Assembly: GCA_001938485.1 (NCBI GenBank)
Contig: MQRK01236553.1
Span: forward strand, 10,903 to 68,894
Length of the DNA stretch: 57,992 nt
Direction: 5' to 3'
Source of the DNA: Girardia tigrina
Taxonomy: Eukaryota
The position numbers and the translations under genes were made by a program. The notes beneath the pieces are model-generated. The model was not told the DNA's origin. It saw only the letters and a list, made by a program, of their open reading frames with translations, and did not search any database. Of the stretch, positions 4,215 to 57,992 are shown piece after piece (position 1 is the first letter of the stretch; the number at the start of each line of letters is the position of its first letter).

Positions 4215-4388
4215 TGAAGTAATCGAAATGATTTATTCAAAACCAATACAAGTAAGTACAACGATCTAAAAAGAAAAACAAGATAATTAATACCAAACCA
4301 CTCCACAACAACAACACATAAACAAAAACCAAACATTCTCATAAAGTGAATATTAAAACAAATTGCAATTTAAAACAAACATACCACA
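4215..4388 (-). repeat. 3' LTR (174 bp)
   Basis: Direct repeat of 8037-8210 with 5 substitutions counted by eye. Confidence 0.95.
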
Positions 4389-4399
4389 TTCACCCACAG

Positions 4400-7300
4400 T
4401 TTTTTTTTAAATGACGCATAGTCTTTCATCCACTCCGGATCGCGTCTTTCGCATTGTGGCCTTCCACCATACTCCTCGTGTTGCTGGTCAATATAACTTT
4501 CAACCAATGTTTCATCCACTTGCTCTTCTGGTCGCACTATCTGGTTCCCATCATTGTTTTTCTCGTTGCTATCGGCATCCGTCGCCGCCCTTGATAAATG
4601 ATGAGCCGACACCGTATCTGTTCTTCCGGTTGAGAATTTCACTTGAATTACTTGAGGAGAAACTACTTTTTAAACGATAACTTTTTCGACTTTCCCTTGG
4701 GCGTGTTACTTTTTCAGAAGCACCTCTTGTCCTGTCGCCAGCCACGGGGCAAACACAAACGGTATAGTCGGAGCTTCCATAAAGACGTCCCTCTCTTCCA
4801 AGGTTGATCGCCGACGAAATGCAAATAATAGTTCGTGGGGCGTTTTATAATCGAGTGCCCTAGAAGGATATGAACGAATGTTCATAAGTGCCATATTCAG
4901 CTGGAGTTCCCACTGAGATGAATGCAAATTTAATTGTTGAAGACGCAGCTGCACTGTTTTCCATTTTGTGCCATTCATGCGTTCTATCTGCCCGTTCCCT
5001 TGCGGATGGTATGGAGTTGAACGAGTACGCACGATGTTCCATTGGTGCAGGAAGTCGGAAAATTCACTTGACTCAAATTGAGTCCCTCGATCACTGTGTA
5101 TAAAGCTGGGTGGACCAAAAATAGTAAAAAGACTTGTCAAACGATTAATAACATTTCTGGTTGTCATGGATGGTAATGGGAATTCGAAAGGGTACCGACT
5201 ATATTCTTCTACGACCGTGAGGATATAAACATTCCGTGTAGTTGACTGCTTGGGTCCCATAAAATCAATTGCTATTCTCTGCCATGGTCTTGTAGCGTGG
5301 ATTACATTTCCTTGTGGCACTTTTGCAAATTTTGGTTTCATCCTTGCACAAATTTCGCACCCAGCAATATATTTTTCCACTTCCTTACGTAGACCTGACC
5401 TCTGAAATTGCTTCTCCAAATAATGGGTCAAACGGCTAATACCTGGATGCCACATGTTGTTGTGAATTATGGCAATTAATTCTTGATCATGCAAGAACGA
5501 ATTATTACTTGACACTGAGGCTATGCGGCTAAGAGGATCGGCCAATGCATTAAGATTACCAGGCCGATACTGAATTTGAAATTTATACTCTGCCAACCCG
5601 ATTCTCCAACGGTACAGCTTACTATTCTTGATCCTGTTTCGAGGTTGAGAATCAAAGAGGAACGCAACTCCTTATTGATCAGTGATGACAATAAATTTGC
5701 GGCCCAACAGAAAATGTCGAAAGTTCTCCACTGCGGCAACGATTGCGTAAGCTTCCAGCTTCACAGCTGCCCATCCGCTTTCATTTTGAGATAATCTGTG
5801 AGAAAAATAAGCCAATAGTTTCCCAGATTGAGAGAGAACAGCTCCAATCGATGTTGAGGACGCATCCGTTTCCGGGGGCAGTGGTGTTTCATCCTCTGGA
5901 ATCGCTAAAAATGACTTAGCAATGATGTTTTTGAGTGTTAAAATGGCTCGCACACAGTCTGTATTCAATGGGAAAACAGGACGTTCTTTTGCTTCAAAAA
6001 GTGGTTTTGCTGTCTCTGCAAAATCTGGAACCCACTTCGAGTTATACACCAACATTCCCACCAGGCGTTCCAATTCCTTTTTGTTCCGAGGTATTGGAAA
6101 TTCCAGTAATGGTTGCAACTGGGCTGGATCTGGCTTCATTATTCCATCTTCAAATACATGACCCAGGAAGGTAAGTTTCTTTTGATACAGTTGGCACTTC
6201 GACAAATTAAGGGTTAAATTCACTTTCCGTGCTCGAGTAATGAACTTTTGGAAGTTTGTGTCATGTTCTTGTCGAGAGCGGCCACAGATGACTACATCAT
6301 CGAAATAGTGAACAACTCCTTCAAAACCCGTAGTAATTTGTTTCATAACTCTACAGAATACTGGTACACCATTTGTTACACCAAAAGGAAGTCTAGTAAA
6401 CTGCCACAAATTACCGTCCGCTTCGAAAGTCGTGAATGGTTGGTCAGCTTCTGACAACGGGACTTGGTGGTATGTAGATCTTAAATCAAGTGTTATAAAG
6501 AAGCGGTGCCCGTGAAACTGATTGATGACCGATTGCATATGTGGTACAGGAAAAGCATCCAAGGCCGTGAATTTGTTGATGGTTGTTGAATAATCGACGC
6601 AAAGCCGCTTCTTCCCCGAAGTGTTTTCGGCAACAACCACTTGGGCTCGCCACTGTGAATGAGATTTCTTAATGATGCCTTCAGATTCCTGGCGCCTGAC
6701 TTCCTTTTGGATAAACTGCACGTCTTGGATTGAGCGAAATCTGAATGGAACTCGCACTGGTTTTGCCGAAATAGGTACTGTAAACAAGCTCACTGGCGGA
6801 ATGTTTAGCACAGATGGCCGATCTGAGATCTGACACAGGTCTTCCAAAACATCTGGAGCCACCGACGCAACTTTCAGAGGTGGAAGAGAACCAGGCAAAG
6901 AAAGCACCAATGCTTGGAACTGGTTCAATGTGTTCATACCCAGGATTGCCTTTTCATTGAGGCGATCCGCAATGAGTATTTTTGTTGTTACAGGTCCCTC
7001 TGTGAATTGGATCACCACTTGAGACTCCCCCACTATTCTCAGAACAGATGCGTCTACTTTGACCGCCCGATTAGTGCCCTTGTTAATCACAATACCTGCT
7101 ACTCGTGCTGTTGTCCGCGAAACAATAGACGCTTCACTACCACTATCAATCAACCAGTTAATTGACCTGCCATTGATGGACGCTTTCAAAAACTTCCGGT
7201 TATCAAATCTGGACTTCCGTCTTTCATTTATGACACCTACGATGACAGTAGATGATACTCCGACCTTTGCTTTACGGCAGACTTTCTGGAAATGCCCCAT

Positions 7301-8017
7301 GATCTTGCACAAATGGCACACTTTGTTTTTAGCCGGACAATCTAGTCTACTGTGCTTTGTTTTGGAACCGCACCAGTAACATGATCCAAAACTTTTTTGA
7401 AAATTGGATTGTGACACTCCTGCAATTGTATGACTNNNNNNNNNNNNNNNNNNNNNNNNNNNNNNNNNNNNNNNNNNNNNNNNNNNNNNNNNNNNNNNNN
7501 NNNNNNNNNNNNNNNNNNNNNNNNNNNNNNNNNNNNNNNNNNNNNNNNNNNNNNNNNNNNNNNNNNNNNNNNNNNNNNNNNNNNNNNNNNNNNNNNNNNN
7601 NNNNCAACAAAACGCATCCCGCAATGCTTCGTCAGCGAACGCTGTTGGGAAGTCACAATATTTTGAAATGGATCGGATTTGGCTCACAAAATCTCGGAGA
7701 CTTTGACCATGTTGCTGCTTGTGAGTGTACAGCCGAACTCTTTCCAATAGAATATTTTTGTCAGTTGCAAATTTCGTCCTGAAGAAATCCACTGGCCTTG
7801 AGAATGCAGTCATATTTTTGTTCTCATCAGAAATCTTAAGCCATTCCAGCTCATCATAGAGACTGGAGGCCTTCTGTCCCATACACAGAAGAAGTAAGTC
7901 TAGCTTTGAGTCGTCATCCACATCCTCAACTCGTAAATAACGCTGAAACTGTCGAATAAACTGGTCAAAGGATTCGGCTGTTGTTTCCAATAGTTGAGGA
8001 GCCTTGACTTTTGGCAT
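4400..8017 (-). pseudogene. Gypsy gag-pol polyprotein, single frame, disrupted
   Basis: ATG at 8017 (MPKVKAP). Zinc knuckles CYWCGSKTKHSRLDC and CHLCKIMGHFQKVC. Protease LIDSGSEA, RT LPFG/YFDD, RNase H TDASSTSIGAVL, integrase HHCC plus IDFMGP/SDRGTQF/GQIER. There is an in-frame TAA at 5672-5674 (ORF 4706-5596 is in the same frame), and a stop plus frameshift near 4706 before the GRTDTVS tail. Confidence 0.9.
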
Positions 8018-8036
8018 AATTTTTATGATCGTTGAG

Positions 8037-8210
8037 TGAAGTAATCGAAATGATTTATTCAAAACCAATACAAATGAGTACAACGATCTAAAAAGAAAAA
8101 CAAGATAATTATTACCAAACCACTCCACAACAGCAACACATAAACAAAAACCAAACATTCGCATAAAGTGAATATTAAAACAAATTGCAATTTAAAACAA
8201 ACATACCACA
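8037..8210 (-). repeat. 5' LTR (174 bp)
   Basis: Direct repeat of 4215-4388. On the minus strand it starts TGTGG, ends CTTCA and has AATAAA at 8059-8054. Confidence 0.95.
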
Positions 8211-9524
8211 TATACCTTTCGTATTATTATAAATTCATTTCGTCGAAAGTTTAAATTTATTATTCGGAATTCTTTATTTCATAATTTTAATAGAACTTTG
8301 TTTATGTTAGTTATTAGTTGATAAATAATATTTTAATATATATTTAATGGTGTTTAATAACTTATATTATTCGATTAATAATATTTAATGACTTACATTA
8401 TTCGATTTGATTATCTATTTATTAATTTAATAATTTGCATTGTTTAATTCGATCCTCCATTTCCTTAATTGTCATAATCATTTATTGATTATTGTAATAA
8501 TTCACATTGCCTAGCTTGATTATTTATTTTTATCATTGATTTAACAATTTCATTGCATAAATCGATTTCGTATTTCTACACTTAATCATCTCTGGAGAAT
8601 TAACTAAATTTCATTGATCACATCGACTCAACCGTCTCTCAAGTTAAATTGTTACCCTGGTCGACTAAAAGTCTAATTAGTAATTTTATCGCTTCGGTGA
8701 TTGCCTTGTTCTCATAATGACTATTGAATGAAAATATTCCAAATAGTAAAGTTTTCAGTTGTCAGTGATGAATTTGACTAGTGATATAATCGAGAGTATA
8801 ATTGATATGATTGATATAATATAACATAAAATCAGTGATACATGTCAGAACAGAGAAATAAAGTAAAATCTTGAAAGCAGAACTGAAGATTGAGGCAGAA
8901 TAAATAAATGTAAATGAAAAATGTTACCAAAGTAAAATTATTAAATTTATCAAAATTGTCTTAATTAAAATTTATCGGATTAAACCGAACTCAAAATAAT
9001 TCGAGAGTAATAAAACGTCATCAACAAAAGTATCGCAAAACTACAGCCTAATTATTATCGAATATTAAACAATTGAGAGTATACATAACATAGTTAAAAG
9101 TAGATATCATTGAGTATAAAACTTTAAATCAAATCTAATTTGAATTTCATTGGGACAAAGAACCGTTCGGAAATGACGCAGGCTGCTTGTAGCATGCAAG
9201 GGGCACGCGGGCAGACCAGCGTTTATTTTCTTGGGGCTCTCTTTGCCTTACTCAAACAACGTAGTTTGTAAAATAAATTTTAAGAGGAACTAATATCAAC
9301 GCCTCCAGAAGCTGAGCTACCGGCCGGATCATCCTCGATGCTGGTAAAGAACCAGAAGGCGCTCCAACGTACACACAACGTGTTGATGTGAGCGAAGGAG
9401 ACACGTCTGTTCCCGTGCTTGTAAAATTGGTGAATTGCCAGAATTAGCCTGAGATAAGCTTGAGTTGCCGTTTAACTCGAAAAACTCAGAAAACGGAGGG
9501 GGCTCAGAGTCAACTAAAATGTAT

Positions 9525-13700: not shown

Positions 13701-16700
13701 ACAGAAGATATTCTATTTGTACAATGCAACCAATGATCACCGACACAAAGGATCTGGTAATATTTTTAAAGGTTGCGATTTCAGAATCTTTACGGTTAGT
13801 GGTTAAGGCAATGTGAATTCCATTCTTTCTAATCTCCTGTGTTAGAATTTAGAAAGAAAATTATATTCAAGCTTCGCATTCAACTTCTTTGTTGAGCATT
13901 TTTGAATGAAACCCAATGACATAATTTATTATATATTCATCATTTCCTTTTATAAGCTATAGAATTAATGTGAATTTCAGTCTGAAGACAAAGGAAAATC
14001 TGCCGAAATTAATAACTAAACAAGTATAAAAGTTGCACCCAGTCTTTTATTTTAAAATGTATATTAGTCACAGTTTTGATAACTTATGACCCCTAAATAT
14101 TGTGTTCTAAAATAGCTGACGCACCATGTATATATCTAGACTGCTGTAATTGATTTTGTGCTTTTTTAAATATTTAAATAAAAACAATATATTTCTTTAT
14201 TTAGGATAAGCCTAATTCAATAATTACATTTAATGATACTAATAACAATTTATTGGACAAATTACAAAAATTCGTTGGTGATACATGTAAACTTCAGTCG
14301 ATTAATATCATTAATCACAAGTAACTCCATTAGAAATAAAAAATATACTTTTAATACATCAAAAATTAGACGAATATTTGAGAAATTTCTGCTGGAAAAT
14401 GACGATTTGAAAAAATCTCAATTCTCATTTAATAATAATATTTATAATTTCATTGAAAAATTGTACGAAATTCTTAATATTCAAGAGACATTTAATGAAA
14501 TGTTGTTGAAAGAGGCTGTTGAAATCGTCAAAGATAAAACATTGGCTTTGAAAAAAGACACAAAAAACTGGAAAAATCACAAGTTTGTTTTTTTTTCTTA
14601 TCGTTACAAAAAAGAAATTCTTTCGTTTTAGTCAGGTTAAAAATAACAATATATTTTGCCTGAATGACATCCACTCGATTTCTGTTATTTAAATAAATCT
14701 TACCATATAAAAAGCCCGTATTTCACGAAACATAAGATGCACCGGACTTTAAGACCTGTTTTAAATTTATTTTTACTGTGCGCGAATCAAGAGATGTGAT
14801 GTAGAAAATCGAAGAGTCACGAAACAGATAAGTTTATAAGGAAATATAATTTGGTAAAATATTATTTTGATAGTTCTGATTCGAAAATAATGTTTCTAAA
14901 CCCTATTTAACCTCTAGACACTGAGCTTAGATTAACATTTTTAGAGGGTCTCGGTTCGAATAATTATAAAAAAAGTTCCAATATTTAAATAAATAATTAT
15001 TATATGACTCTTTTCTACTTATTTTCTATTTATATTTTAATATTTTGGACGTGATGTAAGTGCTGTATGCATGACTACAGTTTATGGAAGGAAAAAATGA
15101 TTCCTAACCGGTTTGATTGAAGCTGTCCTGTACAAGATGTCTAAATCCATCTTAGATACTCTCAGAATCAAACTTGTTTAAACATTAGGTGGATCTTTAA
15201 CTTTAATTCTTACAAGATTATTCGATCCATGTGCTTGTCTATAAAAATGTTTGATCAATTCAAGGTTACTTATATTTCCTTTCTAAAATTTCAAGATTGT
15301 ACAATAATAATTCACGAATAAAATAGTTATAATTAAACATTTATTGAAGATCCAAATTTTGGTGTAGTCTTCGACTATGTTATGCTGATAATGAAAACGG
15401 AAGAATTTCTAATAAAATGAGAATTTAAATAAAAATATTCCTTTTTCTCCAGGCGAAAAATTTACGAGGAATTTACGAAAGAAAGTCAAAAACGCGACAC
15501 CGAATTTAAGCGGTATTGTAGTCGATATAATCTAAAAGAAACGGCCCATATTGCATATTTGAAAGCCGAAGAAAATAAATCCCTATCAAGAAATCAAGTC
15601 GATAATGTAAACTTCAGAAAACTAATCCTTATTCCATATTTAAGTATCATTGTCTTCGTTCAGTTTCACAAATTGTATTTGACCCGCCAATCCGAATACG
15701 ATCAATCAAAAGCCGATTATATAACAGTGTTGGATAATTTCAATAAATTCCAGTCGAATCATTATTCGGTCAGTTTGCTTGAATGGAGCCTCAAGGCAGA
15801 AGAAATCGAGAACACTCGCTACGGAATCTTGAAGTCAACTTTCACCAATTTTCTCGAACTTTGTCGGTCTGTAGCAAGCAAATTTAACGAAATCGCCGAT
15901 AAAATCGAACAAGAATGTGATTCTATTGATTGTGTAAAGGTAGAAATTGATTTAATTTAAATTATTGATTAATTATATAATTATTGCTATTTATTATTAT
16001 CAGATATCGAATGAGAGACAGCGTCTATGACGTCAGAGATGAGCAATAAGTTCTCTTTCTCTCTCTTTATTTTGAATTATTATATTATTTATTTTGTTAT
16101 GATTATTTGTAATAATAATTATTTTTATTAATTTTAATTATCATTATTCTTATATTAAATACTATTAATAGTTTATTATTATTTAGAATAATAATAGTTA
16201 CTATTTTTATTATTACTGTTCGAGTTTTAGTTTATTATTCATAATTAAGTAATAATAAAATCAGTAAATAATTGGTAAAATTCTAATTAATAATTGGATC
16301 AAGATGCCTTTAACGGTCCCTAATTATCAATAGCACATTCAATAAGTACAAACTTTTATTTATTAATAGATAAATGATAAAATAATTTGAGTGTTGCTTC
16401 CTTATTCTTGACCCTGATAAGTAGCACTGAACTGTAAATAAATTTAAAATATTAAAATAAATATGGATAATTACAAAAAACTAATAAAATATACATTAAA
16501 ATGTGTATACATAAAACATATACGATATATTTTAATTCAGCAATTATCATTTAGACCAGTGGTTCTCAACCTTTTTTTTCATGTAGCGCCCCCTTTTTAT
16601 TAATTTCGAAACGTAATCTTGGCTGTGCCCTCCCCATTCTCCCAAAGAAAATTCAAACGAATCTTTCAAATTGGAATACAAAATGAGAAGAAAAAGAAAA

Positions 16701-19700
16701 AAACATTTATGAATCAATAAAAACAATTCAAATTCAACATAAAAACTGACACAAAAGAAGAAGGAAAAAAAGCGATTGTATAAGCCCAAAATTTAACGAG
16801 GTTATCACATTTTAAATAACTTTGTTAATTAAAAGTAAAACTATTTGTCAAAAAATATTTTCAAAGTTTTTTATAAACAATTGTTTTAGTGGAAAAATAT
16901 TGTTCAACAAAAATACCTGCAAAAATAAAAGAAGAAATGATTTAAATTCACAATTTTTCAATATAAACGTTTAACATGTAAACAAAGTGATATTTAAATC
17001 ATATGATATAGGAAATAAATCATTGGTCATTAAATCCAAACTTTTCATCCCATCGCCCCCTGGAAGGCGATATCGCCCACATTGAGAACCACTGATTTAG
17101 ACGATACTCGTTCTTGTGAGATTGTATGGGATACACAGGAATAAAGAATATACTCAATAGAAAAATTGAAAATAAAATTTACCAATATAGAAAAATAATA
17201 TTATTAATAAAAAAAATTTTTATAAAAACAACCACGTTTTTCAAGCATTACCAATGCACAAAAAGAGGAAAATAATTTTTTTTCTAGACATGTGAGAAAT
17301 TTTATACCTAACCAAAAACGTGGGGCGGATTTCTAAATTACTGCTATTAGTAACTGCTATTTTCTCTTTACTGCTTTTTAGTAACAATCGATCATNNNNN
17401 NNNNNNNNNNNNNNNNNNNNNNNNNNNNNNNNNNNNNNNNNNNNNNNNNNNNNNNNNNNNNNNNNNNNNNNNNNNNNNNNNNNNNNNNNNNNNNNNNNNN
17501 NNNNNNNNNNNNNNNNNNNNNNNNNNNNNNNNNNNNNNNNNNNNNNNNNNNNNNNNNNNNNAATTATCACTTGATTTTCACAATATTTGTTCAATTTATT
17601 AATTTTTTCCGTACATCCGTAAAGTAAATGTTTTAAAATATTGTATTATCATCGGAAGCAAGCCTGTATAAAAAAATTCAACTCAATTGGATGACTGAAA
17701 GTGGTCGAAAAATCAATCGTAAGATTTGTTCCAGACAGACAGACAAGAAACAAAGCTAAGAAAAACGTGGTAAAAACGATAAAATTCACAAAATTATAAT
17801 CATTAAAATTATAAAAATGATTTCAAAAAAATCCTAATTTAAATCCAAATTTTCAAATCTTAAAATAATCAAAATCAAAATAGAAAATCTCCAATCTATA
17901 TCAAAAATCGTTAATGAAAATAAAAAAAATTCAAATCAAAATGAAAAAATCCTAATTTAAAATGAAAACCCTATAATTACTAGCGATTTTCGTTAAGTTT
18001 TTCTCTTCATGCTGTACAATACTTGGTCTTTCAGTGCTTTGAATTTTAGAATTTTTAACTTCCAGAAATGGCTAAAAGTCGATTCGATAGTTAATGATAT
18101 TTGCAAGATGCTATACGGTTTAAATTACAGAAAGAATCCATATCGCTCAGAAACCGTATATATGTAAGATCAGTTATGTAACGAGAGTAAAGATGTATGT
18201 ATGAAAAGATCAGTTAAACGGATAAGAGATGATATAACTGTAGACAAGTTTCGACATTTTCTTGATGTGTACCGGAACAAGAGATTGATATTTATAGACC
18301 AAATGAACGAATTAATCCTATTATTTATTATTGCGACGTCAAATATGTATATGTATATTTACAAATATGAAATCAAATTGATGCAATATCGTGTTGTGAT
18401 GCATGGAGAGAGATTGAGAGAGAGACTTCATTGTAATAGTTGCGAGTGTACATATTTGACATTCATTCTGTCTCGTTTCGGTCAAATCTGTTGATAATAT
18501 AAAGTGAATGCAATCAGAAATGCATTCTTATCCACATTCTCGAAATCCGTTTTCAAACTCGTGCGCATCTATCAACACAATACGATCCATTATTATTCTC
18601 TGTAGTGGAATTCAAAATAATTCTTCTCTATTTCCATTAATATTATTACATCATTCAAGTTAAGTAATTCGAGGTTATTTACTCCTATAAATTAAAATTT
18701 AAAGATATTTGAGAATGAAGAACAAACGACCATAATTATCATTGACAGTGGGCTAGAGAAGGATTCATAATACGTTTAAACTTATTTTTCTGATTAAGTT
18801 TTTTATATTTTACGCTTTTCCCCATAAAAAATCGAATCGATCGAATCGTTTTACTTCGCAAAATATTTGACTAAAAATCTGATTTTACGAGACTGAAAAT
18901 TTATTTTCGTTCATTTATTGATGTTTACATAGCAAAATCACAAGAAATTATGTACCCTTGCATTTTAATAATTTTCTTTTACAAATTATGTCAATTTACA
19001 AAACAAATTTTCACATGAAATTTTCGTAATATATCTTTATTATTTATAAATATCCTTTTGAAATGTTAAATTTATAGCATCATGTATATCAATAGTAAAT
19101 ATGTCCGTACATACGCGATAAAAATATTGAATATCTTACTTTACAGTAATCTTACTTTACCAGTAATCTATGAAAATAATTACCCAGATCTGTGTATTTA
19201 CTTGGATAATAAATACAATTCTGTGTGCAAAGTCATTTTTACTTAATTATTTATTGATATTTAATTCAATTTAAATTTAATTTTAAGTTTTAAATTATTT
19301 AAATCTCGATCAGCCGAATGAAAATCAACTTACTCCTTATAGAAATCATTAAATTATCTTAGAAAACAAAATTCCTTTTTCGATTTTTAAACGGAAAATA
19401 ACTTTAATTAAAATACCGCATCCGCCCTATTCACCGAACTTGGCTCCAACAGATTTTCATATATTTTGGTCTCTCCAACATTATCTCGCTGGACAACATT
19501 TCAAGAAATGCATAGATGACTTAATTGATTCGAAAGATGACTTTTTTCACTAAAGGCATCTATTTGTTGCCACAAGATGGCAAAAGACCATAGATGCTAA
19601 TGGTGAATACTTTGAAGATTAATCGTACGTCACTTTGCTTTAAAAAATAAATACTTTCAACTAAAAATAGTCGGAAATTTATGCATCACCATAATATATT

Positions 19701-22700
19701 CGAATAAAATTGTTTAACAAGTCAGTCATTGAAATATAATTTTAATATGCTGTATTATATGTGACACCTAAGGAACTCGATAATGTCCCGATTTGCATAT
19801 AAAATATATAAAAATATCATCACGCACTGGAGTCTAATAGCAAAGTCCTGATATCCTCGTTTCTTTGGTTCAGCGGTAATCTGTTCAATTATTCCAAAAT
19901 ATAATTTTCTTGAAATATTTCACAATATCTGTCATGTATTTCCCTCGGATAATTCATTGAATTATGTTTTAAAAATTATACTATTAAATATCATCATGAT
20001 TTCTGCTACGAAATTCACTTTAATATTTTTTTTAATGTTTTTTTCTCTGTGATGTGCTTTTTGGTTGCCATTCTTATTGTTATTGAAACATTGCTTTTAT
20101 ATATTAATGATATATTATTATCAATTATTAAATTTGTTGAAGTATCCTTTACATCTCTTGATAATAAGACTTATTATTTGTTTTTCTCTAAATCGAAAAC
20201 CCGAATAATTATTTTAAGATAAATTAGTAAACTGAGTGAGTACAAAAATTAAAATAATAACTTTCCACATTAACACAAACAATTACAATCACGAGTTTTA
20301 CACATCCAAAAAGCGTAACCAAATTGTTCAAAATTTATTAAAGACTACTCAAGTGACTAAATATTTCGACTTAGCTTTCTAGACTATACAAATACACTTA
20401 CTTACAGTTGGGATTATGAAATCATTCAAGCAATTATTCATTATGTTCTGACTCAGCCGGGTATAGATTTGCTTCGAATTTGTACGATTAATAATTTTCT
20501 AAGAAACTGATTTCGAAGTTAGGAATATCTATTGATGGCTACTTTACCACATCAGAAAAGTTTTGGAGATGAGTCGTTCTAATAGTAAAAAAAACTCAAT
20601 AGGAATGTATAACATATATCATTGGAGCCAGTTTATGAATAGTGTTATGTTTTTTTTATTGATTTGTGATAATATTTTATGGTTTAGGTATGAGTCGGCA
20701 AAGGGATCACTAAAGACCCCCAGGGGTGTCTGATAAAAAAATTAATACTGAAAAATTTCATAGAAAATATAAATAATATATTTTGCAATTTTAAATGAAA
20801 CAGCAATTTTAATAATTTTTTAATTGAATATAAAGCAGCTATCGATATTAAATTTGTTTTTTTCAAGAAATATTTTAAATTTAAAAAATATATTATTATT
20901 AATATTTTATATGAACTTTTCCAATTTTGAATGTCTATGTTTTCGTAAAGTTTTTTATCAATTATTTTGAATTTGTTTATTTCGTGAAAATTATTTTATT
21001 TATATTGAAAAATCAATGCAATATACATAAAATAATTTAAATGAAATGAACAAATTCAAAATAATTTATAAAAAAATTAACAACAGACATTTGAAATTAG
21101 AAAAGTTCATAAAAAATAAAAATGTATTTTTGAAATTTAAACTATATATAACCAACAAAATAAATCAATTTTTAATTTTTTAAATTTTATAAAAAAAATA
21201 AAAAAATATTCCGATTAAGCTTGAATATTATCATTATTTCATAAATAAAAATACTGGAATGGATTTGATGAAGAAAAGCTTCAAACAAATACCTGAAGAT
21301 GTATGTCTGAAAAATATTCGATGTTTTTTGTTTGAATGTTGTATGTTGATTTGGAATTGTCTCCCACCCAGATGACTGATTAATATTTTAATTCTTTTTA
21401 TCTGAAACTAATTTGATAGAAATTTACACATAATATTTAAATCATATTTTAATTTATTATGACTATAAAATTTTAAATAATTTGATAAATTTTATATTAA
21501 ATTTTTAAATAAATAAAGCAAAATAATATTTTAAAATAATTTTTACTTTAATTTTTAGCTATAAAATTAGTAGTAAATGTTTTTAGAGTTTTTTTCATGT
21601 TCCAATTAGTTAAGATAATCAGGTAAAAATAAATTTGTGATAATAATAGGTATTGAAAATAATATTAGTGTTCTTAATAGTTAGTTCTTAATCTTATACT
21701 TGATTATCTTCAATAATAATGTTGAAAATATTTTTCATTTTAAATATTAAAAATTTGTTCACAGTTCTAATTCCATTAAATATTTTTGCATATAATTAAA
21801 AAAATTTTTAGTAAAACAAACGTGTTATGAAATTCTAATTTTCAGATTTCTTGATTATAATTTTCTTTTTTATCCACATTAAAACAATTTTTCTTAGAAA
21901 TAATCTTCAAAATATATTGGTAAGTGTTTTGATTAGACTATAAATAATAATTAATGATATTGCTGAATAACCGTGAATGAATAACAAATCTTATCAATCT
22001 TATTCATTCTGAAAGGTGGATATAACGTATCTCATTGAACGTCAATTCACAAAAACTGTGGTCTTGCAAAAATAAATTTTACATTTTAAAATATTTATTT
22101 TTTTTTAAAATTTGGCATTTATAGAATAATTATCATTAAGTTATCATGATAAAACTCCATTAATATACCTTTCTGTCTGGTTTTGTGCTTATTAATATTA
22201 ATCATAGTTAAAATTAATACTATAAATATTATATGTAAATTCACTTATTCACTTTGGAAAAATAATATTGAATATTATTAATAAAAAAATTTTTTTATAA
22301 AAACAACCACGTTTTTCAAGCATTACCAATGAACTAAAAAGAGGAAAATAATTTTTTTCTAGACATGTGAGAAATTTTATACCTAACCAAAAACGTGGGG
22401 CGGATTTCTGAATTACTGCTATTAGTAACTGCTATTTCCTCTTTACTNNNNNNNNNNNNNNNNNNNNNNNNNNNNNNNNNNNNNNNNNNNNNNNNNNTTT
22501 TAGTTATCATTTAGGAATTTTTTTTTCAAAATTTTTTTTATCAAATTGTATTGTCATCGGAAGCAAGCCTGTATAAAAAATTCAGCTCAATTGGATGACT
22601 GAAAGTGGTCGAAAAATCAATCGCAAGATTTGTTCCAGACAGACAAACAGACAGACAAGAAAGCAAGCTAATAAAAACGTGGTAAAAATTAAAAAATAGA

Positions 22701-25700
22701 TTAACAATACATTGAAATTTAACAATAATATGAAATTTATTTAGTTCTATAAATTTGCCAGTTTAAATTTATTTATTATAAAAATTAAAATTAATAAGAG
22801 AAAAAAATAAAATTGAATTTAAAAAGTACTAGCAATTATGATAATGAATAAGGAATAATTTGTGAGCAGGTTTTAAATAACTTGACTTGAATACAATATA
22901 CAAATTATACAATTTACAGGGGTTTTCAGTTGAAAAGTGACACTTTTTCATTAGAAATGCTAAATGTAAGCATAAACGAATGCTATTTGTTAGATTTGTT
23001 CTTCCAGTCATGGGTAAATCTCAATTATTGAAAAAATGGATTTTTATCTTTTTAAGAATTCATAAAAATAAATATGCTATGTAAAGCTATTCGAAATGGT
23101 ATATTTTAATTAAGTAAAATGTTTTAAATTTTTTTCAAGTGTCGCATTTCAACTGAAAAAACCATATTTTTTGCAAATCATAATATCAATATAATGATGT
23201 TGTTAAACGAAATATCTAAAGATTAGTCAACAATAAAATCTCCGTTGTTGTTGATTATTTCCTCCCGTCGTTCAATAAGTTTCTCAATACCTTCAATCTT
23301 GACTGAAAAAATTCGTCCAAGCAAATGCTGTGAATTCCATGTCATTTTTGAATGATACGGCGTGTAATGCATTCGATAGCGATCGAGAGAGATGTAAATC
23401 TGATGGCGCCAAGTTAGGTAAATATAGGGGTTGAGGGAACACTTCGCATTTACGTTCTTGAATCGCTGCTTTTGTTATATTGACAATGTGAGGACTTGCG
23501 TTGTTGTACTGCCGAAGAACACTGTTTTACCGACTTCGTCTTTTTTGCTGAATTGTTTAATCCGGTACCGTTGTTTAGTATAGAACTCCATATTAACTAT
23601 TTGTTGCGTCAAAGCAGTTCATGATGGATTATGCCCTCTCAGTACCATCAAACACACAATAATCTTTCGAGGATGAAGATCATGTTTTGTTCGAAGAATA
23701 GTTGCTTCAAATAGATGTACATGTACCATTTTCCCATCAAAATTCCCACGTTGAAGTTCGAAAACCAATGGCGTGTAGTACTTCCAGGCATTGCTTCTTT
23801 AGAATATACAAACAAATCTCATGAGCAGATTTCGAGGCTTTAACACTTCGATTAAATCCAAAAGGCAGATAGTGTCGAAAATGATTGTCATTTAATGAGC
23901 TAAAATTAAAAGCAAAAATTAAAGAAATATGAAAATTGAACATATCATCTCTTAGAACAAAAACCATATAGCTAATAACATAAATTGTTTTGTGAAAGAG
24001 TTTCATTTATGAGTATATTTTTTAATTTAAAAAGAGTTCATGAAGTATTCCTCAATCTACCCATTACATTATTTGAAAGATTATTTTATTATTTTAAAAT
24101 TTATTTATTTTGATTTACTATTTTTTTATTTATTTTTTTTAATAAATTGATTTATCTTTAAATTATTATTTCTAATAGTTTAATAACGACAATAATAATA
24201 ATAAACTATAATTAAAGTAATATGAGAATAAAATCTGTATTAATATCTGTAGTTTCATTTTTTAATTTTTATTATCAGTTTTTTTAAAAATTAATTTGAT
24301 TTTTTTTAGAATATTTTTCTATTATTTATATTCAATATTGCCTTAAGAAATTTAAGTTGAAATGTTTTAAATTATATTTTGATGCAATATGTCAATTTTA
24401 TGTCATGTATTGAATAATTATGATTTTAACCAAAATACTTACTTTTAATATAATTAATTTACTAAATAACTGAAAATTGTAAAAATTAATTTTAGATTTT
24501 GTTTATGAATAATTCTTCCATGTTATCAATTGAAAATTCAAGATTAAAAATCACGCATTTTTCATTCAAATAATCGCATTTTTATATTGTAAAAATAAAA
24601 TTTTTTCGACATTTTAGGTGTGTGAATCAGCCTTATGCGTAACGATATCCGCGTTTATCGGAGTTATGAAACTGGTTTTGTTACGTCACCGTTTATTAAA
24701 AAGGAAAAATTTTATAATTCTATCACAAATGCTACAGTGAACGTGGGGATTCAGCAGTTCATAAGTAATTGCATGTATTACTAGAGTTAGATAGAGTACC
24801 TTAACTCTTTGATGCTTAATGGGATAAAAAATTACCAACCATATGTTACAATAACTTACACAAATATTTGTAAAATTTTAGGATATTATTCCACTTTACG
24901 ATAAATAAATGTTCTATTTACTTGACTTTAGTCAGCATTCATTTACCGTCCAAAGCAATCTTAATTTGTGAAACAGTCTTTATACCTAAAAATCCAAAGT
25001 CTGAAAATCTTAGTTATCAAATAAAACAATACCTTTATAAGGTTAGTTTCGTGGCATTTGGTAAATGTAATGGGAATTAAGGTACTGTATTTTCTTTAAC
25101 TTATGAGAACTCTTGTTATAAAATCTTAGAATAAAGTTTTAGCACGTATACAGTTTTCCTGTTTTTCAAAATAGAAATACAGGCTCTTTGGACAAATATT
25201 TTAGTATATAAAGTCATGTCACAATCACTATAAAAGAAAGATAAAGTATAATAATAATCCTTGATGAACTTTCTTTTAATAATTAATGTTTAATGGTGTT
25301 TTTCAAGTTAATTAGGATCGGTCGCGAAATCCCAGTTCTTCTCCATATAAATTGCACCATAATTTAAAGATGACCCCAACATATTTCTTGTACTTTAATT
25401 TACTTCTTTTTCGTCATTTTATACACGTTTTTTTGTTTTTTAACGAATTTATTAAGGTATATTTGATATTTAGATTATATATCAGAATAGCTTGTAAAAT
25501 TTAAAATATCAGTCAGTGATATAAGAAATATTTGTTATCTTTCAGGTGCTATATTCTAGAAATGTGTAATTTTAGATTTGTTTTTATAAAAAATAGAAAT
25601 CGTCAATTTCCGCGTGTGCAAACATAAAAATGTCTGTAGAAATCTGTTGGGCATTATTCCTGTAGCGCTGTCACAATAATGATTCATTCCCATAATTTCT

Positions 25701-31700: not shown

Positions 31701-34700
31701 TAATGAAAAAAATTCAATTTTTAAAATCTCGTTTTTAATAAATAGCTTATCAGTATTTATAATTCCATATTTTTATGTATAAGAAATCTGGCCAAAAGAA
31801 AACTAAAGTTCCCCAAGAAAAATTGTTTAAATAATTGTTATTTGTGTTATTAATAAATTTTGGTGTTAATGAATTATAATCTTGATCAAGAACCCAACAA
31901 TACCTATCAGAATTTATACGATAATTTATTTTATATGAATAATTTGAATAGTTGTTCAAATTAAAAAATTCTCAATGTTGTCTCCCAAATCTAACATAAC
32001 ATTTCATTTATTAATCAAATTCTCAAGAGTGTAATTTATTAATTTAAGGTCTTAATGCTTCACTTTTAATAAGTCGTAAGAAGTAGAAACCTGCATTATT
32101 AAAAAATCCTTTCTCTATTGAACGAATAAAAAAACGATTTTTTGTCTTTGAGTAGTGCAAAAGAGATACATGAAGCTTATTTCTTTTCTAGGGTAATAAC
32201 TGAACTTTCTAAAAAAAATGAGAGATTTCCTTGAGAGACGATTGGAAGATGCTGCTTAAATCACTGAAAATGACTAAAACTTTTGAATATCTATTTTTCA
32301 TAGATTGCCTGAAAAAGTTGTCAAAGGTCGGAAACCTGCAAACGCTTCATTCTATTTTTCACTTTACAATTTTAATAGTATTTTTATATTTTCACAAATA
32401 AAAGAAAAAATTTACAATAGTTAGAAAGTATTGTGAAATTATGGATATTTTAAAGTCCCTCAAAATGTAAATTGGTACAAAGATCAAGAACGCGGGAAAA
32501 TACACTTTCAATAAAAAGTGGTAAGAAAATAAAGGAAAATAGACTTTCATTAAAAAGTGAGAAGATGAATTATTCTCTCTCCTTGTTATGAAAAACATAT
32601 GCCTCTTTGCCATCGCAAAATTACTACCATTAAAAGTAAATGGTAAAACAGTATTATGACTTTCACAAAAATCACTAATATTCAAAATTAAAGGGTTTAA
32701 ACGAGTTATTGAGTTCAATTGAGTTCAACGAGTGTTTTCGAAATGTCCGACTGAAGGGAGCATCTGGGCCCATAGGGATGATCCCTCTTGTTTCGGATTG
32801 CTAGTCGACGGTCGATATTCGTGAAAGTCATACGGCAAATTTCTCTGCACAATCAAATCGAAATTCATTGCTATCGAATTTTTAGGTAGAAGGATTTCAA
32901 CGTAAAGAGGTTGTTGAGAAACAGTGAGAAGTCCCGAGTTCAGTTTGGAGAGAATACCGCTCTTTGTCATGAGTTCGTACCCGAGCTGTTGTTCGACAAG
33001 TCTTCCAATCGTCTCCAGTATATTTACATGTGCCAATAGATCCTCTGGTTTTACCTTTACTTGCAAATACATCTCAGTTACATCGCTTACTAATGCAATT
33101 TTATGTTTCCGAAACCTCAATAACACATCGACGATATCGCGTTGCAATTTTGGACCAGTTTCAATCCAATCATTCAAACTCATTCCCCGAGACATTGCAG
33201 CTGCATCGAAAACTATACGTACTTTTGTAGTTTCTTTATCCCTTCGGATCACTGGAAAATGAGGGACCCACCATCCGGTTTCTAATTCTTCCTCACTATT
33301 CAATTTTCTAATATATCCTTTTTTGTTATAATNNTCAATAATGCGATGATATTCCAACTTTAATTCTTCATCTTTTGCGAATCTTCTCATCAAACTTTCT
33401 AGTCGTCTCTTTGCCATGTCCAAGTTCCCTTCCGGTTCCAAAGTTCCAACTTTCCAAGGCAGACTCACCTGATAACGATCTTCATTCCAACACATTGAAG
33501 CAACACTTCTCTGCCAAACTTCTTGATCGTTAGGAGTCCACTCCTTCTTCTGACAAGGTTCTTCGAGCTCCCAAAATCGTTTGACTTCCTCGTCCAAGTT
33601 TCGGATACAATAAGTCCAAAGTGTTTTATCTCGGTTCTGATTCCCAAGGTAGGATGGCACTATTCCTATGCATGACCACCCCAAAGGTGTCAATCTTGCG
33701 ATCGGTTCTCCTTCATTTCCTCTCACTTCTTCTATTGAAGAATGCAATTCAGGATAATTCGCTCCTATGAGCATATCCACCGATCCTTTTGCTTCGAAAT
33801 GAGGAAATGGAACATCTTTCAAATGATCCCAATTGGGAGCTAATTTTCTCCAATTTAAGGAAGTCATATTCCCAACGATACTGCTCACCACTGGCGCACG
33901 AATTCTCTTCTTGACTTTTCCGTTCATACTGTTCAGCTCAAAATTTACTTCCTTGACATTTAATCGTCGTTTGACACCTCCAATCACACCGACGGAAAGA
34001 TTTTCATCCCTTCCATCCAAACCCAACTCTTTTACCACCTTTTCACTAATGTAAGTGCCGGAACTCGCATCGTCAAGGAGAGCATTAATTACCAAAATTT
34101 TTTTGTCTTGTTTAACAATTACTGGAACTGTTCTTAGTGCGACATGACGATTTCCACACGTATTCCCAGTCTCAGACGTAACTAAAGATGTCTCTCCATC
34201 AATTACCGAATCAACTTTTCTTCCAACACTCTCTCTTTTATCATAATGAAGTAATAAATGGTGCATTTTACCACACTGACCACAACTTCTCATGAATCTG
34301 CAATCCTTGACTTGATGATTTCCCCTGAGGCAGTTGAAGCACAAATTCTCCTTTTTTACAATGTCACATCGTGCCGCAACAGTCAGGTCTTGGAAATCAC
34401 CACACTTGTCCAGTGAATGATCCTTAAGACATTTTACACATTTCCTCCAACTCTCTTGTCTGGATCTCGATTCACTGTTGTTGCCATGGGTTACATAGGA
34501 AGCCACTTTATCTATTCTTCGAGGACTCACTCCAAATAATGTTTCCTGAACACCCCTCCTCAAACTCGCTTCTTCCTGTATCCACTCGTGCAACTTCTCG
34601 ATGCTTCTCTCCTCCGATTGGTTGCGAAACCATTTTTCATATTTCAATAACCTCTTTGCTGGGAGCTTCTTCAACAATGTCTGAAGCAAAACTCCGTCCT

Positions 34701-36060
34701 GTAGCTCTGGCTCCTTGTTAATCTCCTTCAGTCTTACAACCACATTTTCGATCATCTCGGCAAATTTCTCGATTTCCCCAACTGACTCCTCTTTGACAAT
34801 CCGGAAATTATCTATATCTTCCAAAACTGAAAGATACAGCCGTCTAGCTCCTCCAAACCTTGACTCCAAACGTTGCAATGCTTTATCGAAGGCAGACTCC
34901 CCATAGCCTAAACTCTCGATCAGTTTCAAGGCTGGCCCAGTCAAATAATTCCTCAAGTGAAGAAGTTTTTCCTCCTTAGAAGCACTTGCCTGTTCGATGC
35001 AATGCTTGAACGCTGCTCTCCAACTTTCATATTCCTTCACGTTACCAGAAAACGTTGGAATCGAAAGTTTCTTAAACCCAGACAAAGTTCGTTTTTCTGT
35101 TGCACTGTCATCGTTATTACTCAAGCTTTCAGCATTAATCAACTTTTTCTCCTCCCTTCCTTGCACTATATGTTCAATATCCTCATATTTCGACTCTAGA
35201 TCTTTGAGATCTTTTTCTAGTTCTTGAACCTGATCCTCTTTTTCCAATTTTATGCCGAGCACAGTTAAATCATCCAGTTCTTCTATCACTTGAAGGTATT
35301 TCTCCTCGTATCGTCGTCTAGCCTCTTTTCTATTCGATTAATAATTTCTGAGCAGAACTCGATAAAATTTGATTGTCGATAAATACCATATCGAAGATGG
35401 CCTCGATAAATTCTGTTGTAAATTTCATGACTTCACAATTGTCCTTGTTCGTATCAATGNNNNNNNNNNNNNNNNNNNNNNNNNNNNNNNNNNNNNNNNN
35501 NNNNNNNNNNNTAATCAATGACTTCAACAATGTCGATGAATTATTGGCGAATTCATCCGAGAAATATTTCAATAAAACTCGAGCGAGATCTCGAGATATT
35601 TCATACAACGTTTCATCGTAGAAATTTAGAAACGATAAAATTTGATGATGTCCATCGGTGACAGCAAATCAATGGTGCAATTGTGAGAAGTGTTCGAGAG
35701 GAATATGAAAATTCGCCTGCATTCATCGACACTCAATTGCCGAGTGGCTGTAATGTTCAATAAATCGCTATCAATCTTCATTAGATATTCAAAACTCAAA
35801 GTGTCGGCAAATAATATTTATTGATTCAAAAACTGAGGCAACAACAATCACGCAAGCGATTAAATTGATGAATTAAAACAACATTCCAGTATTATTAAAC
35901 TGGATTTTTCTCAAAATTTAATCACAATACAAAAAAAACTTTATAAATATATATAATTTTTTTTATGTTTAATTTTAATAACAATTAAATATATAGATAT
36001 ATATATATATNNNNNNNNNNNNNNNNNNNNNNNNNNNNNNNNNNNNNNNNNNNNNNNNNN

Positions 36061-42805: not shown

Positions 42806-45800
42806 TTAATATGTTTATCCGTTACCTTTTATATTATATTATTTAATATAAAATCTTGAAAATGAACCTTGTATAAATCGTTATACAAACCTGGGTAATA
42901 AAATAATATAAAAAAACGTTATACTATAATATTGCTAAGCTTTTAGTGATTACTTATTGTGAGGATTTTTGTCAACGCTGTTGGTTTTATTTACTTATTT
43001 ATTTTTTGATGGTTTATGTATATTCTTGTTGCTTATAATGACATTTTTTTTAATTTAATTACTTAAATAGTTCACAAATTTGAACAATTTAAGGTTATAT
43101 TGACAATAACAAAATCTTTAAAATATTTATAAATTATGAAAGAAAAATTCAAGCTATCATCTTTACAATTTATTGTAATTAAGTTGGGTGTTGTAAGGAC
43201 CATATTAATTGCATAACCCACACTTTCATCTATGAACTGCGAAACTAATGTTATTTTTATCAGAATATAAATTATAAATAAATCTTATTATGAAATTAGA
43301 AAAACATTGCCTTCTGAATTAAAAAATCACTTAACGCTTGATAATGATTTTAAATAAATAAAATTTTATAGAATTTAAGATAATTATTCAAAGCAAGTAA
43401 CAATATATTTATTAAAAATTCTTATATGATACATTTTTTATCTAGGTGTCAGAAGTGTCATTTCAGGGATATATTTTAGGTAAAATAACTTTAGTGTGTT
43501 CTCATAACACTAGGTAGGTAATATTTATCGTAAATGTTCCGTCATGTTGTAATAACCTTTGAAAGATAGCTGTGGCCATTTCAAGCAAATGGGTGTCTGA
43601 TTTACGATAGTGTCTATTACAACTAAAAATTTAATAATATTAATAAAAAATTTTTTTTATAAAAACAACCACGTTTTTCAAGCATTACCAATGCACTAAA
43701 AAGAGGAAAATAATTTTTTCTAAACATGTGAGAAATTTTATACCTAACCAAAAACGTGGGGCGGATTTCTGAATTACTGCTATTTCCTCTTTACTGCTTT
43801 TTAGTAACAATCGATCATTTCTATGCCCCACGTTTTTGGTTANNNNNNNNNNNNNNNNNNNNNNNNNNNNNNNNNNNNNNNNNNNNNNNNNNNNNNNNNN
43901 NNNNNNNNNNNNNNNNNNNNNNNNNNNNNNNNNNNNNNNNNNNNNNNNNNNNNNNNNNNNNNNNNNNNNNNNNNNNNNNNNNNNNNNNNNNNNNNNNNNN
44001 NNNNNNNNNNNNNNNNNNNNNNNNNNNNNNNNNNNNNNNNNNNNNNNNNNNNNNNNNNNNNNNNNNNNNNNNNNNNNNNNNNNNNNNNNNNNNNNNNNNN
44101 NNNNNNNNNNNNNNNNNNNNNNNNNNNNNNNNNNNNNNNNNNNNNNNNNNNNNNNNNNNNNNNNNNNNNNNNNNNNNNNNNNNNNNNNNNNNNNNNNNNN
44201 NNNNNNNNNNNNNNNNNNNNNNNNNNNNNNNNNNNNNNNNNNNNNNNNNNNNNNNNNNNNNNNNNNNNNNNNNNNNNNNNNNNNNNNNNNNNNNNNNNNN
44301 NNNNNNNNNNNNNNNNNNNNNNNNNNNNNNNNNNNNNNNNNNNNNNNNNNNNNNNNNNNNNNNNNNNNNNNNNNNNNNNNNNNNNNNNNNNNNNNNNNNN
44401 NNNNNNNNNNNNNNNNAGCTCAATTGGATGACTGAAAGTGGTCGAAAAATCAATCGCAAGATTTGTTCCAGACAAACAGACAAACAGACAAACAGACAAG
44501 AAAGCAAGCTAATAAAAACGTGGTAATAATAATAATAAAAATTCAACACATCACCATGTATTAATGATGGATTAGCTAATTTGTAAAATTAATATTTCTA
44601 TTTTATTCAAATACGTACAAATGATTATTGGGAAATATATAAAATCAATTTAAATTATTTATATAACAAATAAGTATTTCATTTTACGAAATTTGTACTT
44701 AACTTACAACTAGGATAATTTTTAGGATTGTCGTATTGCTTTGAATTTTCTTTAGCTTGTGTCGGACATTTGATTTTAGCATATGTTTAGTTTCAGTTCT
44801 GTACTTAATCAGGATTTACACTGGGTAAAGTAATAGCACACAAGAAGTCAAGATAGGAGTGGAAGTAAAGTAGAGCGCACTAAAAATAATTTATTAATTA
44901 TAAATTATTAATTAAATTCATTATTTAGAGATTATTAGTAAATTAGAATTATTATCAATAATACTTGTTCCAATAATGAGAAGTTAATATTTATTTCATT
45001 TTTCGATCAAAAAAGATGTTTAATTGTGAATGTTTTACTAAGGATTGTCCCAGTGATTATCCTATTATGATCCAACATCCAGTGTTAATGTACCTTTACC
45101 AAAATTTGTTTGATAACCGTATATATTTTATAAGCACAAATACCTGAAACTTCCTGAACCCGTCTTGGCCTTTTTTAATGAAACGCAGAAATTATACAGA
45201 ATTAGGATCTAAGTTATTCTACTCTTCTTAAATGCAACCAGTGAACTATTGAACAATTGCAAAAATAAAGTTTTATGGTATTAATTTAGGATTAATGTGC
45301 CTCTTTAAATATTCAGAAATGTGCTCAAATGAATATAAGTCAGGACTTTATGTATTTTTATAATGGAAACAGCAGTTAAAATAAAATCTAAAATGATTAA
45401 TGGATAAATCCCTCGCCAACTGAAGCATCCTGTTGATGTACATATTCACGGTCAACTTTTTAATTTTAATGCGGTGTATTGACTATGATACCGTTCATTA
45501 GAAATTCGAAACACTTGACTGTTTTTTATTAAAACCCAGTATCGAAAAACGGCTTTCATCAGACTAAAATATTTTTTAGCAATAGTCATCTTCTACAGGA
45601 TTTTTTTTCGGCACAGTTTTACACAGACGTCACGGTTTCATAGTTAAATCAAAGATGAGCTTTTTGGGAAACTCGAAAATATACGTGCTTCGTATTGCTT
45701 TCTTCTAATCGTGGACGTGTTGATTTCCTTGTAGTAACCATATGAAAATTGAAAAAAAACAGTCAGGCAATCGATATACTAATGTTATGTATTATAGTGC

Positions 45801-57526: not shown

Positions 57527-57992
57527 ATTAAAAAAAAATTTTTTTATAAAAACAACCACGTTTTTCAAGCATTACCAATGCACTAGAAAGAGGAAAATAA
57601 TTTTTTTTCTAGACATGTGAGAAATTTTATACCTAACCCAAAAACGTGGGGCGGATTTCTGAATTACTGCTATTAGTAACTGCTATTTTCTCTTTACTGC
57701 TTTTTAGTAACAATCGATCATTTCTATGCCCCACGTTTTTGGTTAGGTATAAAATTTCTCACATGTCTAGAAAAAAAATATTTTCCTCTTTTTAGTGCAT
57801 TCGTAATGCTTGAAAAACGTGGTTGTTTTTATAAAAAAAATTTTTATTAATAATATTAACGGATAACATCAAGTAGTAGGTGGACATGAAATAGTAGGTG
57901 TAATGAAGTTTTCAAAAAATTTTCCACCTACTATTAAAATAGTTGGTGGAATCAAATAGTAGGTGTATCGTTTTTAAAGCAATTTATAAAAA
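57527..57992 (-). mobile_element. Fold-back/DINE-1-like repeat, copy 4; hairpin fully resolved, probably runs off the window
   Basis: Arms ~57530-57652 and ~57728-57850 are near-perfect reverse complements around a ~75-bp spacer. TAGTAGGTG repeats follow. Confidence 0.8.

Follow-up and report, generated by a model that had tools for sequence, protein, structure and literature searches.

Leader-LTR complementarity suggests self-priming in a chromodomain-less Gypsy retrotransposon lineage represented in Girardia tigrina

The window analysed here, a stretch of 57,992 nucleotides of the Girardia tigrina genome (contig MQRK01236553.1), carries on its minus strand a 4.0-kb LTR retrotransposon of the Gypsy type, at 8210-4215. 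Its parts, in the direction of transcription, are the following.

8037..8210, minus strand: 5' LTR, 174 bp, TG...CA ends, direct repeat with 4215-4388
8081..8088, minus strand: predicted self-primer core GATCGTTG (the partner), perfect complement of 8034-8027; putative primer
8054..8059, minus strand: AATAAA, a hexamer resembling a poly(A) signal, with 6 differences in 378 letters over 63 copies; putative function
8035..8036, minus strand: spacer CT, 2 nt, from LTR end to primer site, invariant in 63 of 63 copies
8027..8034, minus strand: predicted primer-binding site CAACGATC, complementary to the element's own LTR, no TGG
7605..8017, minus strand: N-terminal part of gag, which stops at the assembly gap (Retrotrans_gag, E 1.8e-4, below the curated cut-off)
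7436-7604: assembly gap (N), interrupting gag
5672..7435, minus strand: double zinc knuckle, protease (PR), reverse transcriptase (RT) and RNase H (RH), ending at the in-frame stop 5674-5672
4706..5671, minus strand: integrase (IN; H2C2 and core) without chromodomain, broken by the stop 4708-4706
4389..4412, minus strand: purine-rich tract, partly degenerate, directly before the 3' LTR
4215..4388, minus strand: 3' LTR, 174 bp, TG...CA ends, its partner octamer identical to that of the 5' LTR

The domain order gag-PR-RT-RH-IN obtained by profile search is that of Gypsy elements, and the LTR pair, the TG...CA ends, the target-site duplication (4 of 5 positions matching, GTATA / GTATC) and the purine tract are the structural marks of Ty3/Gypsy; the best match among solved structures was Ty3 Gag-Pol (E 8.7e-47). 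The two LTRs differ at 5 positions, none of them inside the partner, and the LTR start is common to sister copies with differing flanks. An RNase H domain was recognised, and the translated gag contains two Cys/His motifs that make up the double zinc knuckle. At E 0.1 the chromodomain PF00385 was absent from the window pieces and from 9 of 9 intact relatives, as the preliminary description of this DNA had observed for this element, and precomputed annotation recorded none among the best 120 of 493 polyprotein matches. Judged from its sequence, the window element is a compact Gypsy retrotransposon with a single ORF and no chromodomain, and this copy is defective because of the in-frame stops at 5674-5672 and 4708-4706 and the assembly gap at 7436-7604.

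Other features of the window lie apart from this element. An 870-aa frame at 32725-35337 (minus strand) has DUF1759 and a weak aspartic protease match and is BEL/Pao-like; an N gap precedes it, and it showed no LTR pair. At 47528-49616, 192-bp inverted repeats (79%) flank broken transposase-like frames, which we take to be a decayed Tc1-type DNA transposon, the type being assigned by motif. Copies of a short dispersed repeat with inverted ends, MITE-like in appearance, are found at 57527-57858, 43645-44543, 17196-17790 and 22284-22702. The open frames at 746-1294 and 15433-15960 (both plus strand; 182 and 175 codons) had no Pfam match, and the window holds no tRNA genes.

The leader of the window copy is 19 nt long (8036-8018) and consists of CT, CAACGATC and nine further bases, followed by the gag ATG at 8017-8015; the coordinates and letters of LTR, leader, AATAAA and gag ATG agree with the preliminary description. 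As stated there, no TGG follows the 5' LTR, the LTR partner is identical in both LTRs, and it lies upstream of AATAAA at 8059-8054. The leader length given there holds for the window copy but is unusual: in most sister copies the leader measures 18 nt, and the fifth A is extra. The 14-bp helix with a bulged base, also proposed there, exists in the window copy as an A-T extended helix (minimum free energy and centroid structures; z -3.17; 2 of 200 shuffles do as well), but its outer six A-T pairs are not conserved and the conserved helix is 8 bp, CAACGATC (8034-8027) being the reverse complement of GATCGTTG (8088-8081). The window helix spans a 46-nt loop with a pair probability of 0.99. It is the shortest among the 15 families compared below (duplex -9.4 kcal/mol); when the LTR was shuffled with its dinucleotides kept, 6 of 300 trials matched it as an anchored ungapped helix, and the leaders of two other families also reach 8 bp with the window LTR. 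Taken alone, the 8-bp helix is modestly above chance, and the case depends on relatives.

Sister copies in the Girardia tigrina genome were collected by a DNA search (40 of 324 candidates scored) and by a gag-start pattern (62 places), which yielded 82 alignments spanning partner and leader and 63 distinct copies, some of which may be one insertion assembled twice (e.g. L015/L028). None of the 63 carries a TGG primer site. The preliminary description had allowed that intact sisters might carry TGG and that the window copy had lost it, and this reading was rejected on that count. Both octamers are intact in 40 of the 63 copies, as counted from the alignment table, and the remaining 23 have scattered octamer changes, many at CpG; 4 copies are changed in both arms, none of them in a compensatory way. 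Expressed as departures from each column's commonest letter over the 63 copies, differences amount to 3.2% in the partner (16 in 504 letters), 3.4% in the primer site, 1.6% in AATAAA and 3.2% in the LTR stretch 8053-8037, which is thus conserved equally to the two arms. The outer TTTTTA arm differs at 7.7%, the LTR upstream of the partner at 9.7% and the downstream stretch 8080-8060 at 12.6%; the search pattern makes the figure for the gag start (2.2%) too low. Leader variants that recur break the outer TTTTTA/TAAAAA arm, and in the diverged subfamilies L339, L350 and L367 (72-77% identity) insertions or substitutions interrupt it, while GATCGTTG is intact in L339 and L350 and has two changes in L367, and the three leader octamers have 1-3 changes. 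Because the outer arm is broken while the core is largely kept, the conserved unit is the 8-bp core and not 14 bp, and the 14-bp bulged helix was rejected as the functional unit. In a large subfamily (L022, L026, L333, L335, L340 and others) the alignment to the window LTR begins only at position 27; its U3 5' end is different, and its partner and leader are those of the window element.

Relatives were sought by protein search, which returned 493 polyproteins, the best 120 spanning about 1,030-1,550 aa and mostly near 1,200. Named matches come from Mnemiopsis, Actinostola, Trichuris, Ischnura, Armadillidium, Periplaneta, several moths and butterflies, Myxine and Narcine; these records were compared by their proteins. 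The best 80 of 320 metagenome loci were used, and a direct repeat was present in 20. Five were dropped, three with the repeat within the coding region (L058, L065, L072) and two with repeats of about 70% identity (L117, L118), and merging of siblings left 10 metagenome families. In L060 and L064 the contig ends inside the 3' LTR, whose boundary was placed by inference, L083 is without its LTR start, and L088 was taken from a permuted contig. A search of the host genome gave 20 regions, 10 with a usable LTR pair, and from these four more families (L200, L206, L212, L210); L204 was excluded because its 3' LTR is truncated; its helix measures just 7 bp. The comparison therefore covers 15 families, 5 from the Girardia tigrina genome (the window family included) and 10 from metagenome contigs. 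RT-RNase H identities among 14 of the 15 range from 32 to 94%, L060, L062 and L064 being close kin (87-94%). Repeated searches of the host genome using P0007 and P0068 gave almost identical loci, the viral contigs searched held no relatives, and 20 regions from other Gypsy clades of the host genome, meant as a negative control, gave 0 LTR pairs and therefore supply no control. Two observations on these relatives may be recorded here. Many RTs of the sister subclade have Asn for the second catalytic Asp of YxDD, also in open reading frames (L062, L068, L076, L083, L085, L088, P0016 and P0068 are examples), and the window element retains both Asp. The LTRs of one host family (L207, L212, L213) end in ATA and not CA, backed by target-site duplications.

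We demonstrate that the leader is complementary to the element's own LTR at a fixed position 1-2 nt past the LTR, and that this pairing covaries from family to family and goes together with the absence of TGG (0 of 15 family leaders). The measure was the longest perfect helix between leader and LTR with the leader start allowed 0-3 nt past the LTR; the observed offset was always 1 or 2. All 15 leaders pair with their own LTR over 8-18 bp, with a mean of 13.4 (8, 12, 9, 13, 18, 14, 13, 13, 14, 16, 16, 17, 11, 14 and 13 bp), against a mean of 5.3 bp and a maximum of 9 in the 210 pairings of a leader with another family's LTR. None of 100,000 permutations reached the sum for own LTRs, so that the covariation looked for since the preliminary description is present over the 15 families. 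Thirteen families beat all 300 shuffles, the window family being reached by 6 of 300 and L206 by 3 of 300, and host DNA behind the 3' LTR gave helices of 3-6 bp in 11 of 11 cases. The same pattern appeared when LTR boundaries were disregarded and the search began from the gag start: 38 of 89 loci have the gag N-terminus, 5 of these have too little upstream DNA, and 27 of the 33 tested, siblings included, have a helix of at least 10 bp (shuffle means 6-9), which starts 1-2 nt after a CA in 21 of the 27. As to the misses, an 11-bp match in L058 is cut by the search window, one mismatch interrupts the helix of L073, L082 is a sibling of L076 with a deletion, L118 is without most of its LTR, L204 is degenerate and L093 has 9 bp. 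Moreover, compared with its siblings L066, L068 and L070, L067 has a partner base changed in both LTRs, matching a change in its leader (the 3' LTR was read for L066-L068).

The register of the pairing is also regular. All four families that make up the window's subgroup have the upstream helix edge at the boundary TTTTA/GAT, which is a likely RNA start as far as sequence can tell; the three sister families of this subgroup have helices of 9-13 bp with the 2-nt offset of the window family. In the sister subclade (L060, L062, L064, L068, L076, L083, L085, L086, L087, L088 and L210), all 11 families have C at leader position 11, as do 13 of the 14 families with a helix covering that position; the partner ends in TAAA or AAAA, then A/G-C-C/A/G, in 10 of 11, both regularities being noticed post hoc. 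This fixed register may mark the geometry of start or cleavage.

We propose that the element probably primes reverse transcription with its own RNA, in the manner of Tf1. The preliminary description had already favoured self-priming, and this reading is now supported by the covariation in 15 families, by the absence of TGG from 63 copies and by the finding of no tRNA match above 6 nt in an incomplete set. The RNA would begin with the partner or immediately ahead of it, at 8089/8088, and its first 8-9 nt would fold over the 46-nt loop onto 8034-8027; when folding starts at the partner's first base, the computed helix probability is 0.87-0.99. Cleavage of the RNA by the element's RNase H, on the 3' side of G8081, would leave a new 3'-OH, from which RT would copy first CT and next U5 and what remains of R; it would afterwards jump to the 3' R. 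The retained primer would be copied in plus-strand synthesis, and by this route the primer site would stay matched to the LTR as families diverge. Integrases usually trim the two terminal bases, and copying from the CT spacer would supply two terminal bases. A primer of 8-9 nt from 8088/8089 is more likely than a 14-mer from 8094. One RNA-labelled public run gave 3 assembled contigs, 0 of them covering 8015-8122, and assembled contigs cannot show a start. Rfam had no match at 7900-8300.

The pairing could serve priming in another way, since the two LTR copies are indistinguishable from DNA: the partner in the 3' U3/R might pair with the primer site with the genome looped, an RNA cut or ended at the 3' partner giving the 3'-OH. 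Such priming by the 3' copy seems unlikely to us. It would fit partners that end in TAAA/AAAA in 10 of 11 sister-subclade families, an AATAAA/ATTAAA hexamer at the partner's 3' end in 6 of these 11, and pairing that extends 5-7 nt beyond the conserved register in four families. However, in the window family 21 nt separate the partner from the AATAAA downstream of it, which is conserved in its own right, L062 and L064 also carry a separate downstream hexamer, a cut at that place would presumably remove the 3' R required for strand transfer, and no precedent was found in those portions of the literature that the search reached. For the window family in particular, it might be asked whether its 8 bp are coincidental or disused in a clade that otherwise self-primes, given that 6 of 300 shuffles and 2 foreign leaders reach the same length. 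We regard this as very improbable, in view of the 2-nt offset and the TTTTA/GAT boundary common to three sister families with 9-13 bp, a core largely kept in subfamilies diverged to 72-80%, and a family that reached at least 63 copies carrying this leader.

A host tRNA, tRNA fragment or small RNA acting in trans, with the helix as a regulatory hairpin (for translation or packaging) or a shield of the site, was also considered and is, in our judgement, decidedly unlikely. Half-tRNA priming is known in copia lineages, according to the available part of PMC6317226, and about 10 nt separate the helix from the gag ATG; a regulatory hairpin would nevertheless have no need to begin exactly 1-2 nt past the LTR. 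Host tRNAs were collected by an Rfam search (63 of 57,303 candidates scored) and ARAGORN, which gave 81 genes, 48 of them distinct, with only 17 anticodon labels and without genes for Asp, Asn, Glu, Gln, Gly, His, Leu, Phe, Trp and Val. In this incomplete set the longest match to the window leader was 6 nt, short of the 10 nt that the preliminary description had set as speaking for a tRNA primer, and the best match over five host families was 6-7 nt. Patterns that set the octamer in an anticodon arm or after a T loop had 120 and 117 hits, respectively, and 0 of the 60 checked among these 237 lay in a tRNA. As the tRNA set is incomplete, the covariation carries the case against a primer in trans: fifteen distinct primer-site sequences each follow their own LTR. 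On these grounds, with a tRNA set of 17 anticodon labels, priming by a tRNA was rejected.

The trees place the lineage apart from the chromovirus-like and Mag-like groups sampled. Longer polyproteins, found by a further search, served as outgroups, and their labels were assigned after the first tree; Tf1, sushi, Mag and Cigr-1 themselves are outside the tree, and five rows are called Mag-like by an RT motif. In RT-RNase H trees the window element and 13 other families form one group (FastTree 0.999; SH-aLRT 100 with 18 rows), L206 having been left out of such trees because its segment is too short. When RT, RNase H and integrase of 54 proteins were combined in one tree, the ingroup (100/100) had a long stem and two subclades (100/98, 100/100), and the chromovirus-like rows (100/99) and the Mag-like rows (100/100) each formed a group; this tree does not fix the order of deep branches. 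PF00385 is present in 6 of 9 chromovirus-like rows, and five further PF00385 proteins are placed elsewhere. AU tests rejected neither the union of the ingroup with the chromovirus-like rows (p 0.74) nor that with the Mag-like rows (p 0.55), and both constrained trees scored above the quick free tree. By these phylogenies the chromodomain-less lineage is not nested in the sampled chromovirus-like or Mag-like sets. The RT phylogeny called for by the preliminary description thus puts it outside the chromovirus-like group, as anticipated there, and of the Mag-like double-knuckle gag mentioned there the double zinc knuckle stands, while Pol does not fall among the Mag-like rows sampled.

Mag gag has a double zinc knuckle, and Mag elements use tRNA primer sites. 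Mag elements are, like the window element with its 174-bp LTR, compact animal Gypsy elements with short LTRs, but their RT motifs and tree position differ from those of the window lineage, which stands apart (100/100) from the five rows labelled Mag-like by motif, a sister relation to them not being rejected (p 0.55). We had at first guessed that the clade was the Mag C-clade, whose training set has an average LTR of 174 bp in the portion of PMC3601003 consulted; this was dropped, as the C-clade is defined by SURL (PMC6238403, in the text available) and the tree separates our clade from the Mag-like rows. The elements of the TAR lineage (Houba, Osr-1) are Ty1/copia elements of plants, as opposed to the Gypsy order PR-RT-RH-IN of the window element; self-priming has been predicted for them, outside the chromoviruses, from leader-LTR complementarity (PMC6317226, in the passages seen).

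The closest functional likeness is with Tf1/Tf2/Tj1, Tf1/sushi and the plant Tcn1 clade, which likewise have no tRNA site and a primer site directly after the 5' LTR, complementary in the Tf1 group to the same LTR upstream of its 3' end; a primer site complementary to its own LTR, without a tRNA site, is what we find in the window lineage. It seems that the lineage works like Tf1/sushi and is not a member by chromodomain, tree position or pretzel. Unlike Tf1/sushi, it is without a chromodomain, and its Pol is a lineage (100/100) separate from the chromodomain-bearing set sampled, in a tree that holds neither Tf1 nor sushi. It has a spacer of 1-2 nt, a leader of about 16-35 nt in most families, a polyprotein of about 1,200 aa, and named relatives from invertebrates, a hagfish and a ray. 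Its helices of 8-18 nt are similar in length to the 11 nt of Tf1, whose first 11 bases pair with the primer site, RNase H cutting between bases 11 and 12 (PMC7175516, in the part available). Self-priming of Tf1 needs a pretzel of three duplexes (PMC10085805, likewise seen in part). Unlike Tf1, the 15 families showed no excess of the two side helices in a simple ungapped test (sums of 73 and 74 against 72.2 and 74.0 in shuffled sequences), and a hairpin directly after the primer was not above shuffles, although one is visible by eye in several sister-subclade folds.

Self-priming is treated as a hallmark of Tf1/sushi chromoviruses and a few plant copia lineages. Cigr-1 of Ciona, a single-ORF element of about 4.2 kb that encodes about 1,200 aa, agrees in these features with the clade of the window element. 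Repbase may contain 'self-primed' Gypsy entries from invertebrates, and these would be the main risk to novelty. In the literature as far as it was accessible, self-priming is described for Tf1, Tf2, Tj1, Tosmo, the Tf1/sushi group, Tcn1 and the TAR/Houba/Osr-1 copia elements, and non-tRNA primer sites stand unexplained in Skipper, GalEa and bivalve TRIMs. Cigr-1 and MolGy are widespread animal Gypsy clades outside Mag, compared with the window clade by description alone, from portions of PMC6238403 and PMC8556966 that do not cover priming. A report of self-priming in a non-chromovirus animal Gypsy element was not met in the searched literature, from whose scope Repbase/GyDB and most subscription journals fall outside (partial texts of PMC6317226, PMC6934838, PMC3601003, PMC5006619, PMC6238403, PMC4600332, PMC7175516, PMC5443660, PMC10085805, PMC8556966). 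We therefore put forward only tentatively, as a fair possibility that we stop short of favouring, that a widespread chromodomain-less animal Gypsy lineage (ctenophore, cnidarian, nematodes, arthropods, hagfish and ray) invented self-priming separately from Tf1/sushi, without the pretzel and with a primer of 8-9 nt in the window family, and that this is not yet in print.

If the proposed self-priming is true, a separate animal Gypsy lineage would mean that LTR elements do without the tRNA primer more frequently than has been supposed, and thereby evade control by tRNA fragments. It would account for the failure of tRNA-based annotation to locate a primer site in elements of this kind, and it bears on the order of origin of hairpin and tRNA priming, a question raised in the part of PMC3601003 seen. 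The families form a natural series of primer lengths (8-18 bp) with exact predicted RNA starts, on which the mechanism is directly testable.
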